Shown here in pieces: positions 60,681-62,601 of a stretch of 64,000 nucleotides of DNA. Location: NCBI GenBank assembly GCA_934130165.1, contig CAKOXO010000002.1, positions 192,412 through 256,411 of the forward strand, in the 5' to 3' direction. The notes beneath the pieces were generated by a model. It was not told where the DNA came from. It did not search any database and worked only from the letters and a program-made list of their open reading frames with translations. Source of the DNA: an uncultured Bacilli bacterium (GTDB lineage Bacteria > Bacillota_I > Bacilli_A > RF39 > UBA660). Positions within the stretch are counted from its first letter, which is position 1, and every line of letters begins with the position of its first letter. Position numbers and translations under genes: made by a program.

Positions 60681-60950
60681 TTAATTTGTAAAAGTATGTG
60701 TAACAGAGCCATCCGAATTATGACTTATAGTTGTATGTCCTGTTGTAATGCTATGACTCGTCGTGCCATTAGAACCATGACTTATTGAAGAGTGTCCAGA
60801 TGAATTAGTGTTACTACTACTTCCATCAGAGTGATGGCTAGTTGTAGAATGTCCAAATGAACTATTATGACTTGTCGTACCATTAGAACTATGACTTATC
60901 GAACTACTTGAATTATGTCCGAATTTCGAATTAATATCATTGCCAAACAT
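60681..60950 (-). CDS. Ser/His/Thr/Asn/Gly-rich repeat protein (cytoplasmic or leaderless, no Cys)
   Basis: 89 aa. Iterated S-H-x-S-x-G-(T/S)-T-S-H-type units (SHSSNGTTSH, SHHSDGSSS, SHGSNGTTSHSITTGHTTISHNSDGS). Confidence 0.45.
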   Translation of the reverse strand: MFGNDINSKFGHNSSSSISHSSNGTTSHNSSFGHSTTSHHSDGSSSNTNSSGHSSISHGSNGTTSHSITTGHTTISHNSDGSVTHTFTN

Positions 60951-60962
60951 AATACTATCTCC

Positions 60963-61505
60963 TTACTTATTTTCTACTTCGTTTTTACCTTCTTGTATAC
61001 CTTTACTAATACTTTGGGCAATTGAACCTGCAGCATTAGCAACTGTTGGAGTTATTTTTTCTATACCTTCTTGTGCAACAGGCATAACTTGTTGAGTAGT
61101 ATATGCTGTAATTTCTCTCCTATGTGCTATAAACATTACAACACCACCTGCAATTGTTAATGCGAAACCAATAAAGTTTAAAAAGCCTCCTAAAGCGAAC
61201 AAGCCAACACTACCAAACATTCCCTTTGCTGTATCCTTTGTACTATTGAAAGTATTTTGAGCCTCGTTAATTACTGTGTTTTGATCCATAGAATTAAAAT
61301 TGTTAATTGCATTACTACCAACTTTATCAAATGCATTTGAAGCACTATTACCAGTACTAACAAATCCAATAATTATAAGTGCAATGCTAATAACTAATGT
61401 AATAACTCCAATAATCAACAACATTTTACCAACTTTTTTTACCTTAGCGTTATTTCGCTGATATTTTTCTTCACTCAATAATTTTTGATTATCCATTTTT
61501 AACAT
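60963..61505 (-). CDS. Two-TM membrane protein with Gly-rich second helix, partner of the S/H-repeat gene
   Basis: 180 aa. TM1 LLIIGVITLVISIALIIIGFV. TM2 FGSVGLFALGGFLNFIGFALTIAGGVVMFIA. Stop-to-start spacing of 12 nt to the repeat-protein gene. Confidence 0.4.
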   Translation of the reverse strand: MLKMDNQKLLSEEKYQRNNAKVKKVGKMLLIIGVITLVISIALIIIGFVSTGNSASNAFDKVGSNAINNFNSMDQNTVINEAQNTFNSTKDTAKGMFGSVGLFALGGFLNFIGFALTIAGGVVMFIAHRREITAYTTQQVMPVAQEGIEKITPTVANAAGSIAQSISKGIQEGKNEVENK

Positions 61506-61545
61506 CCTTTCTAAAAAAATAAGATTTATACTTTCTTTTAAATTA

Positions 61546-62082
61546 TTAATAACTTTTTTTGCCTTTAACTAAATATATAATAAATGCCCCTAAAATGGCC
61601 AATCCAGCAATAGAACCACCAATTATATAAAATATTTGATAAGACATTGGTTTAACTAAATCGTAGTATACAGTGTAATCTTTATTTTTAATTGCTGTAT
61701 CTTCCATCTCTAAAGAGTTCATTTTCGAATATAATTCACTTGATTCACTTTGACATTTAGAATGCTTTTCGAACCAATCGGAATCTTCCATATTCATTGC
61801 ATCGCATTCTTGTTCTTTTTTTTCATATTGTTCTTTTAAAGGATAATATTCTTTTTCAATTGCCTTTAGTCTCTCATTAGCTGCATTTACAGCAGCTTTA
61901 GATTGTTTTTGTGCCGTTTTTTTTCTTTCGTCATTAATTTTTTTAGAATCAACTTGTTTAAATAATCCAACACCTGCAACTATTAGTCCAATTATACATC
62001 CAATAATAACAATTTTAATTGGCAACGCTATTTTTTTCTTTTGCTCCATTATATTCAACTCCTTTCTTATATTTATAATCAT
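61546..62082 (-). CDS. Membrane protein with N- and C-terminal TM helices and central coiled-coil
   Basis: 178 aa. Coiled-coil between TMs with two Cys (ECDAM, SKCQSE). Confidence 0.4.
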   Translation of the reverse strand: MIINIRKELNIMEQKKKIALPIKIVIIGCIIGLIVAGVGLFKQVDSKKINDERKKTAQKQSKAAVNAANERLKAIEKEYYPLKEQYEKKEQECDAMNMEDSDWFEKHSKCQSESSELYSKMNSLEMEDTAIKNKDYTVYYDLVKPMSYQIFYIIGGSIAGLAILGAFIIYLVKGKKSY

Positions 62083-62151
62083 ATCATATTTTTGTCGTTA
62101 TGAATAGCATTTTGTCGAAATTAGAAGCAAAAATAAGATAATTTTCTTAAG

Positions 62152-62601
62152 GTGATGATTATGAATACTGAGAAAATTAAAAATATAAGAGAAGAATTAG
62201 AGATTACCCAAGAAGATATATCAAGAGTTTTAGGGTGTACAAGAACAGCCTACTCATTGTGGGAAATAAACAAAAATACAATACCATTATATTATTTAAA
62301 TAAAATATCAAATGAGTATAATATAAATATTGATTATTTAGTAGACTTATCAAATGACAAGTATATCAAATTTAATAAAGTAGAAATTGATAGAATTAAT
62401 TTAGGTAAAAAGTTAAAAGAAGCAAGGAAATCTATTAATTATACTCAAGAAAAACTCGCTTCAAAGTTAAATACAACGCACTCTGTTATAAGTGCATATG
62501 AATCAGGGAAATCAACCGTATCTACATTATTCATTATAGAAATTGCAAAAATTACAAATAGATCATTAAATTGGTTATTAGATAAAACCTCAGTGAAATA
62601 G
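62152..62601 (+). CDS. XRE-family transcriptional regulator with two HTH_XRE domains
   Basis: About 147 aa. Two repeats of the Cro/C1-type HTH (ITQEDISRVLGCTRTAYSLWE and YTQEKLASKLNTTHSVISAYE). Divergent from the membrane/repeat-protein operon. Confidence 0.7.
   Translation: MMIMNTEKIKNIREELEITQEDISRVLGCTRTAYSLWEINKNTIPLYYLNKISNEYNINIDYLVDLSNDKYIKFNKVEIDRINLGKKLKEARKSINYTQEKLASKLNTTHSVISAYESGKSTVSTLFIIEIAKITNRSLNWLLDKTSVK

Follow-up and report, generated by a model that had tools for sequence, protein, structure and literature searches.

Hpn and Hpn-2 of Helicobacter pylori and the His-rich tails of UreE, HypB and SlyD are His-rich metal binders. Hpn contains approximately 47% His, together with His runs and Cys pairs. 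GsiB of Bacillus subtilis is built from 20-residue repeats, which are charged (K/E/G-rich) and helical or disordered. Garay-Arroyo and colleagues are said to have defined hydrophilins in 2000 by a Gly content above 6% and a hydrophilicity index above 1, that is, a grand average of hydropathy (GRAVY) below -1. Choline-binding repeats (CW_binding_1) and the short repeats of the combined repetitive oligopeptides (CROP) of Clostridioides difficile toxins carry conserved aromatics (GW...YY) and belong to large extracellular proteins. In this study, a 64,000-nucleotide stretch of DNA from an uncultured Bacilli bacterium (the window; GC content approximately 25%) was analysed. A three-gene minus-strand unit lies near its right end, and the last gene of this unit, at 60681-60950, encodes a genuine small protein under selection. 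This protein of Ser/His/Thr-rich tandem repeats, hereafter the repeat protein, belongs to a previously undescribed, narrow and lineage-restricted small-protein family of approximately 30 members.

Like the Hpn-type proteins, the repeat protein is small, leaderless and enriched in His that could serve as metal ligands, has no enzymatic domain and is probably cytoplasmic. Unlike Hpn, its family contains 10-14% His, which is embedded in a Ser/Thr hairpin motif, and has no Cys and no sequence similarity to Hpn; the gene also has no urease, hydrogenase or metal-transport neighbourhood. With hydrophilins and late embryogenesis abundant (LEA)-like proteins such as GsiB, it shares small size, a probable cytoplasmic location, strong hydrophilicity, the presence of Gly, tandem repeats of approximately 20 residues and the absence of Cys and Trp. 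In contrast to GsiB, it has almost no charged residues beyond His and Asp, it is predicted to form hairpin units with invariant positions, and it has no KGG-repeat match in Pfam. A repeat of approximately 19-20 residues, a predicted hairpin followed by a short Gly-containing linker, and a variable copy number also recall the CW_binding_1 and CROP repeats. Unlike CW_binding_1 (PF01473) and CROP, the repeat protein lacks a conserved aromatic core, a signal peptide and a Pfam match, and it has only 1-5 units.

The preliminary description of this stretch, made from the sequence alone, had called the protein almost entirely composed of S, H, T, N and G and free of Cys. The count agrees with this: S28, T14, H12, N10 and G10 make up 74 of the 89 residues (83%), and Cys is absent. 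The 12 His residues correspond to 13% of the protein, and one HH is the only adjacent His pair. With one Lys and no Arg, the protein would almost escape detection in tryptic digests. The highest 19-residue Kyte-Doolittle window is -0.54, which bears out the absence of a signal peptide noted earlier and extends it to transmembrane (TM) segments. Because it has neither, the repeat protein probably stays in the cytoplasm. The 11 members for which composition was calculated contain 6-14% Gly and have GRAVY values from -0.76 to -1.06 (-0.95 for the window protein). The isoelectric points in the family range from 5.1 to 7.2, all members are without Cys, and the calculated charge of the window protein changes from -1.5 at pH 7 to +7 at pH 5.5.

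The architecture of the protein is an N-cap (MFGNDINSKFGHN) followed by four 19-residue units, which begin at residues 14, 33, 52 and 71. The unit consensus is G-[HNS]-[ST]-[ST]-[IVTF]-S-H-x-S-[DN]-G-x-x-[ST]-H-x-x-[TS]-x. The iteration had previously been written as SHxSxG(T/S)TSH-like; it is more regular than that, with a strict 19-residue period. We aligned 32 units from 11 family members without a single indel. Counted from the first His of the unit (position 0), the conserved residues are S(-1) in 31 units, H(0) in 31, S(2) in 29, D/N(3) in all 32, G(4) in 30 and H(8) in 26. The invariant positions are Ser-His-x-Ser-[Asp/Asn]-Gly ... [Ser/Thr]-His. Among the aromatic residues, Phe alone is semi-conserved, at unit positions +10 and +12. 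Both caps show conservation across the family, the N-cap as MF.ND.NS and the C-cap as SVTHTFTN, and the C-cap belongs to the last unit.

The identity autocorrelation of the window protein was 0.37 at lag 19 and 0.45 at lag 38. The value of 0.37 was reached at any lag from 5 to 44 by 28 of 20000 composition-preserving shuffles. The lag-38 peak is the stronger because units with an SNG turn alternate with units with an SDG turn. A tandem-repeat check at the nucleotide level had been proposed in the preliminary description and was carried out. Tandem Repeats Finder reported one weak 24-nt array only, and the DNA of the units shows just 56-68% identity. This makes the repeats old and preserved as protein sequence, and a recent slippage array is excluded by this low identity. 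The length of the family members varies in whole units, from 29 to 106 aa with 1-5 units. The protein P0152 (29 aa) is identical to P0001 (48 aa; L007, 10001-10147) except that exactly 19 residues are missing, which points to a recent in-register loss or gain of a unit within one lineage.

A reading frame not conserved in relatives had been named beforehand as evidence that the open reading frame (ORF) is not translated. The annotated frame alone is stop-free in all 15 family members compared, the other five frames contain 1-20 stops each, and the outcome thus favours coding. For pairs with dS of 0.55-1.4, the dN/dS ratio (Nei-Gojobori) of the repeat gene was 0.16-0.32, and that of the neighbouring gene for a protein with two TM segments (2-TM protein) was 0.09-0.19 in the corresponding pairs. 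The closest pair, the window and L012 (dS 0.15), gave a dN/dS of 0.56, which carries little information. Over the 32 units, Ser(-1) is encoded by AGY in 31 and Ser(+2) by TCN in 29, with third positions free, and all four GGN codons are in use for Gly(4). The fixed Ser codon families and the varying third bases indicate amino-acid conservation with synonymous drift. The same gene is found in the same place in three other species-level genomes (L007/L009, L010 and L012). AAGGAGG is present at a matching distance in the orthologues of L007, L010 and L012, and a terminator follows three of the four orthologous genes, including that of the window. An SD-like purine run precedes every copy examined, also in other contexts, and most copies have a terminator.

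In view of these data, it is extremely unlikely that the ORF is spurious or decaying and belongs to a repeat-rich spacer beside a mobile element. What could be said for this reading is that approximately 560 bp separate the gene from the right end of a 10-kb integrated element, that the gene adjoins a YhcG_C remnant, and that the comparison with L012 gave the higher ratio mentioned above. It is contradicted by the reading frame kept in 15 of 15 members and interrupted in all others, by the low dN/dS at higher divergence, by conserved amino acids whose synonymous codons vary, and by the persistence of the gene in approximately 18 genomic contexts, each with its own ribosome-binding site (RBS).

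The protein had earlier not been recognised as any described family, and every database searched agrees with this. The 89-aa protein had no family match in Pfam and NCBIfam at E<=0.1 or in PADLOC and PHROGs at E<=0.01, and no chain of the PDB sequences matched at E<=10. A word-indexed search of 5.8 billion proteins gave one match. An exhaustive phmmer search of 1.84 billion representative proteins gave seven clusters, and a profile search of the 5.8-billion-protein set gave 19 matches; both contained family members only. A degenerate DNA pattern for the last unit, made by hand, was found in eight metagenome contigs and in no viral contig. The tblastn search of the repeat protein against plasmid and phage records found nothing, and motif strings of the repeat unit were not found in a literature search. 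The search for homologues and their neighbourhoods, which had also been proposed earlier, yielded approximately 30 relatives in approximately 18 lineages or contexts. All sources are gut metagenomes (human Hadza and Nepal, goat) or metagenome-assembled genomes (MAGs) labelled "uncultured Bacilli bacterium". Outside uncultured gut Bacilli of low GC content, no member was found.

Several other identities were considered and rejected. With PADLOC, only generic helix-turn-helix (HTH) and coiled-coil noise was obtained, which gives no defence system. The search for a structured RNA in the region gave a sub-threshold chance match only. A secreted bacteriocin with immunity proteins does not fit, since the repeat protein has no hydrophobic or cationic segment, is negatively charged at pH 7 and has no adjacent ABC transporter. 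A small acid-soluble spore protein does not fit either, since there is no Pfam match and the stand-alone copies have a housekeeping-like -10 element, judged by eye, and no forespore-type promoter. The 303-aa protein P0123 (L082, 3359-4270) appeared to be a fusion of the repeat with a globular domain. Inside this gene, the GC content of the contig jumps from approximately 21% to approximately 45%, so P0123 is probably a chimeric assembly and should be treated with caution as evidence for a domain fusion.

We tentatively favour the reading that the repeat protein is a cytoplasmic metal-binding or pH-switched beta-hairpin repeat whose capacity is set by the number of units; we regard this as possible and do not call it probable. 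One His-based site per unit is favoured because each unit has two near-invariant His and an invariant Asp/Asn-Gly turn, Cys is absent, the isoelectric point is near 6 and the charge swings strongly with pH. Each unit would form a beta-hairpin with the strand TT[IV]SH, the turn xS[DN]G and the strand xV[ST]HxFT. Successive hairpins would place the second His of one unit by the first His of the next, and the resulting site would contain one His/His pair, plus Asp/Asn and Ser, per unit. These sites could hold Zn, Ni, Co or Cu as a divalent transition metal, or they could titrate at approximately pH 6. This would make the repeat protein a small buffer or chaperone for metals, or a binder switched by pH or metal, with its capacity tuned by the number of units. 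In the window genome and its closest relatives, the cytoplasmic 2-TM tail may be its place of action or its target, a link that would be facultative.

Structure prediction with AlphaFold gave a mean predicted local distance difference test (pLDDT) score of 49 for the single sequence and 46 for a 9-row alignment, in which the rows of L010 and L012 were not included. In both runs, strands were predicted at residues 54-58, 64-70, 73-78 and 83-87 or a subset of these, in the last two units, with a local pLDDT of 60-78. The turns were GSNG(T), GH and SDGS. According to the DSSP string, H66, a second His, would stand opposite H77, the first His of the next unit, with an Ile-Ile pair two rungs away. 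Several observations weigh against the hairpin reading. The AlphaFold scores are low overall (46-49), residues 1-50 are below 50, and the chain may be nothing more than disordered. Genes for metal transporters, metallochaperones or metal-responsive regulators do not recur around any of the copies examined. The His content of approximately 13% is far below that of the classical His-rich metal-storage proteins, and in 20 of the 32 units N, S or G stands in place of the third His (position -5). Half of the copies are not beside a 2-TM gene.

The same features bear on a hydrophilin-like protein, that is, an abundant disordered protectant or condensate former that would have a bulk physical effect in stress without a defined site. 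We consider this unlikely. In its favour, the Gly content of the family lies in the reported hydrophilin range and its GRAVY is borderline, the AlphaFold pLDDT is below 50 over more than half of the chain, and the copy number is variable. Copies also stand alone or near usually highly expressed housekeeping genes (gap, rny, fhs and the pyruvate:ferredoxin oxidoreductase gene, PFOR), with TGnTATAAT-like promoters. Against it are the strict 19-residue period without indels between units and the seven near-invariant positions per unit with conserved caps, which argue for a defined fold or site and not for composition alone. A KGG/GsiB or LEA match was not found in Pfam.

The ORFs, the two small membrane-protein genes upstream and the divergent regulator named in the preliminary description were all confirmed at their coordinates (Table 1). 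The gene for the protein with two TM segments around a helical ectodomain (TM-helical-TM), the 2-TM gene and the repeat gene form a tight three-gene unit with their own RBSs and a terminator. The gaps are 49 nt between the TM-helical-TM gene and the likely 2-TM start at 61496, and 12 nt between the 2-TM stop and the repeat gene, whose Shine-Dalgarno sequence overlaps the 2-TM stop codon. The 167-aa start of the TM-helical-TM gene is used by gene callers in six assemblies. A strong terminator hairpin separates the repeat gene from the YhcG_C remnant, which is convergent with it. The terminator scan gave four sites against 0.5 expected, and the sole other minus-strand match is inside the regulator gene.

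Table 1. Features at the repeat-protein locus and in the neighbouring integrated element (window positions).
Feature	Position	Strand	Details
Ser/His/Thr repeat protein gene	60681-60950	-	89 aa; ORF listing
Shine-Dalgarno AAGGAGA of repeat gene	60958-60964	-	7 nt upstream of ATG; read from sequence
2-TM protein gene	60963-61496	-	177 aa from MDNQ (likely start); ORF reaches 61505 (180 aa)
TM / helical ectodomain with two Cys / TM protein gene	61546-62049	-	167 aa from MEQKKK; ORF reaches 62082 (178 aa)
Divergent promoter region	62050-62160		between regulator and operon; read from sequence
XRE-family regulator	62152-62601	+	149 aa; likely start ATG at 62161 (146 aa)
Bidirectional intrinsic terminator hairpin	60657-60677	both	8-bp stem, T-runs either side; terminator scan
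YhcG_C (PDDEXK nuclease) remnant	60421-60648	+	only profile positions 88-152 of 157
Coiled-coil ORF upstream of YhcG_C remnant	60167-60409	+	80 aa
Large serine recombinase	50759-52498		in 10-kb element
rve-type insertion sequence (IS) transposase	53520-54329		in 10-kb element
Mob_Pre relaxase	55057-56292		in 10-kb element

Both upstream proteins have two TM-like hydrophobic segments each. The 2-TM protein consists of a K-rich N-terminus, TM1, a variable loop of approximately 55 aa, a Gly-rich TM2 and a highly conserved tail (HRREITAYTTQQVMPVAQEGIEKITPTV...). In the family alignment, the N-terminus EYLSEE.YQ.NN.KVKK and this tail are strongly conserved, and both termini would be cytoplasmic by the positive-inside rule, the C-terminal tail comprising approximately residues 125-177. 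The 2-TM family of gut Bacilli is unannotated, and often 2-3 copies are present per MAG. It gave 527 matches at E<=1e-3 and 73 loci in the species-representative genome set. Neither membrane protein had a relative in Pfam, NCBIfam or PDB. Homologues of the TM-helical-TM gene lie upstream of the 2-TM gene in L007, L010, L013 and L018, and both membrane proteins of the window are matched by many relatives with lengths of 210-265 aa. The two proteins therefore seem to be split or paralogous forms of a single architecture, with a TM segment, an ectodomain, a second TM segment and a tail. A Cadherin-like surface protein is often encoded immediately upstream of the membrane genes (L015, L017, L035, L047, L063 and L075). 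An origin of the repeat from the 2-TM loop was considered and rejected, as unfiltered blastp found no similarity.

The repeat gene directly follows a 2-TM-family gene, with a gap of 12-23 nt, in approximately 8 of the 18 lineages: the window lineage (also L100/L102), L007, L010, L012/L097, L083, L089, L101 and L103. In the other contexts, it lies after a gene for a Cadherin-like surface protein (L085), which elsewhere precedes the membrane genes, after recA-rny (RNase Y; L093), after gap (GAPDH; L098), between ftsA-ftsZ-fhs (formate-tetrahydrofolate ligase) and a sigma factor gene (L105), after a GNAT-like gene (L095) or after YhcG/Maf (L108/L109). It is convergent with PFOR in L099, precedes an AIM24-like gene in L104, adjoins a SpoVA-like gene in L094 and stands alone in L082. 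In the stand-alone copies, -10 elements resembling TGnTATAAT can be made out by eye, and these copies have their own terminators. In L109, the gene that adjoins the repeat-gene copy encodes a 501-aa DUF1016/YhcG/Maf protein.

The two membrane proteins had been described as dedicated to the repeat protein. A co-oriented 2-TM gene is indeed a frequent neighbour; the term "dedicated" is not supported, because a repeat gene was found at only 3 of the 73 2-TM genome loci and copies occur in other contexts elsewhere. The data support that the repeat gene is frequently co-transcribed with a gene of the 2-TM family and that this link is not obligatory. An alternative is that the repeat protein works in the cytoplasm as a dedicated partner or regulator for the 2-TM protein, and thereby for an XRE-controlled envelope module, with its caps or hairpins docking on the 2-TM tail. 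This is doubtful as a full explanation, and it is compatible with the favoured metal- or pH-dependent hairpin reading. An adjacency of 12-23 nt in approximately 8 of 18 lineages is far above chance for 1-3 copies per genome, and the conserved 2-TM termini are both predicted to be cytoplasmic. The copy of L085 follows the Cadherin-like surface protein that precedes the membrane genes elsewhere. On the other side, 70 of the 73 2-TM loci have no repeat gene, the repeat gene lies in housekeeping surroundings unrelated to the module in approximately 10 lineages, and the adjacent arrangements may all stem from one ancestral event.

The locus of L083 (3700-4632) bears on the same alternative. It lies beside an IS66 transposase gene; only 43 aa of the TM-helical-TM gene are left, and an A-run in the 2-TM gene carries a frameshift. 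With its stop codon lost, the 2-TM gene runs on into the repeat, which thereby becomes a C-terminal extension of the tail (P0122, 183 aa), as would suit a partner of the 2-TM protein. Against this, the locus is decaying, with its frameshifted 2-TM gene, truncated upstream gene and IS66 nearby, and the internal GGAGG-ATG of the repeat gene is retained. P0122 was therefore rejected as a 2-TM and repeat fusion and attributed to stop-codon loss in a decayed locus.

Besides a His-rich metal binder and a stress or condensate-type repeat protein, which correspond to readings weighed above, the preliminary description had suggested a modified-peptide precursor. Such a ribosomally synthesised and post-translationally modified peptide (RiPP) would carry glycosylated, dehydrated, heterocyclised or cross-linked Ser, Thr or His, with its enzymes encoded elsewhere. 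The repetitive Ser/Thr/His-rich sequence and the conserved N-terminal segment, which is readable as a leader, would suit this suggestion. The gene tables of the approximately 18 contexts disfavour it: no modification enzyme, exporter or metal gene recurs in them, and this holds for YcaO, radical-SAM enzymes, lanthipeptide synthetases, peptide glycosyltransferases, peptidases and export ABC transporters. In addition, there is no Cys, the N-cap is only approximately 10 residues long, and the conserved C-cap is part of the last unit. We consider a RiPP precursor very unlikely.

The gene divergent from the three-gene unit had been described as a double-HTH XRE regulator. Pfam confirmed two HTH_3 stretches (E=2.1e-25, 88.9 bits, cut-off 23), and HTH_19 matched in two stretches with 80.3 bits. 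In this respect it is comparable to the XRE/Cro-CI-type tandem-HTH regulators: it likewise has two HTH_3 domains and is divergent from the genes that it probably controls. Within the divergent promoter region, the direct repeat TTTTGTCG occurs at 62090-62097 and 62110-62117 with 20-bp spacing, and the two copies are a candidate operator of the tandem-HTH regulator. L007 shares this direct repeat, yet its whole spacer is nearly identical, so the conservation is uninformative. The same regulator gene is adjacent in L007 and convergent in L010, and an XRE gene is adjacent in several 2-TM loci. In L038 (5233-5967), a 244-aa protein consists of an N-terminal XRE-type HTH fused to a TM-helical-TM part and is encoded directly upstream of a 2-TM-family gene; this fusion would link the regulator functionally to the membrane module. 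The XRE adjacency in 2-TM loci and the L038 fusion assign the XRE link to the membrane module and not to the repeat gene. In L007 (3831-8333; Hadza), the regulator side is flanked by genes for an AAA/nSTAND-like ATPase (518 aa) and a 973-aa protein without a family match. The window has no such pair; the flanks of the module thus differ between species.

On the other side of the locus, a mobilisable element of approximately 10 kb is integrated at tRNA-Gly(TCC) (50052-50125) and extends from 50052 to 60119. In addition to the genes in Table 1, it carries Q_salvage, HD, GNAT and Sel1-repeat genes and several genes without a family match. A 12-nt sequence made up of the tRNA 3' end and its flank, GCTCCATTGAGG, is found at 50120-50131 and again at 60108-60119, and the two copies are likely an attL/attR pair. 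In other strains (L001 compared with L002/L003), the site of the element carries different cargo. The YhcG_C pieces are longer in the related strains L100 and L102, with 119 aa and 129 aa, respectively.

Small orphan proteins with repeats are frequently met in uncultured gut bacteria. Should the present one be no more than a disordered hydrophilic filler, it would add another orphan to them and be of limited interest. The 2-TM family, with more than 500 sequences, is worth a study of its own. It is a long shot that the unit is a new minimal metal- or proton-switched beta-repeat that would fold or oligomerise on binding and dock on the 2-TM tail; together with the widespread 2-TM family, it would form a new envelope-to-cytoplasm signalling or anchoring module with an output tuned by repeat number. 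If the metal- or pH-dependent hairpin reading is right, the family would represent a natural His-based beta-hairpin module that is very small and simple and needs 19 residues for each of its 1-5 sites. Such a module would provide a model for metal- or pH-switched folding and a first handle on the biology of these uncultured, reduced-genome gut Bacilli.

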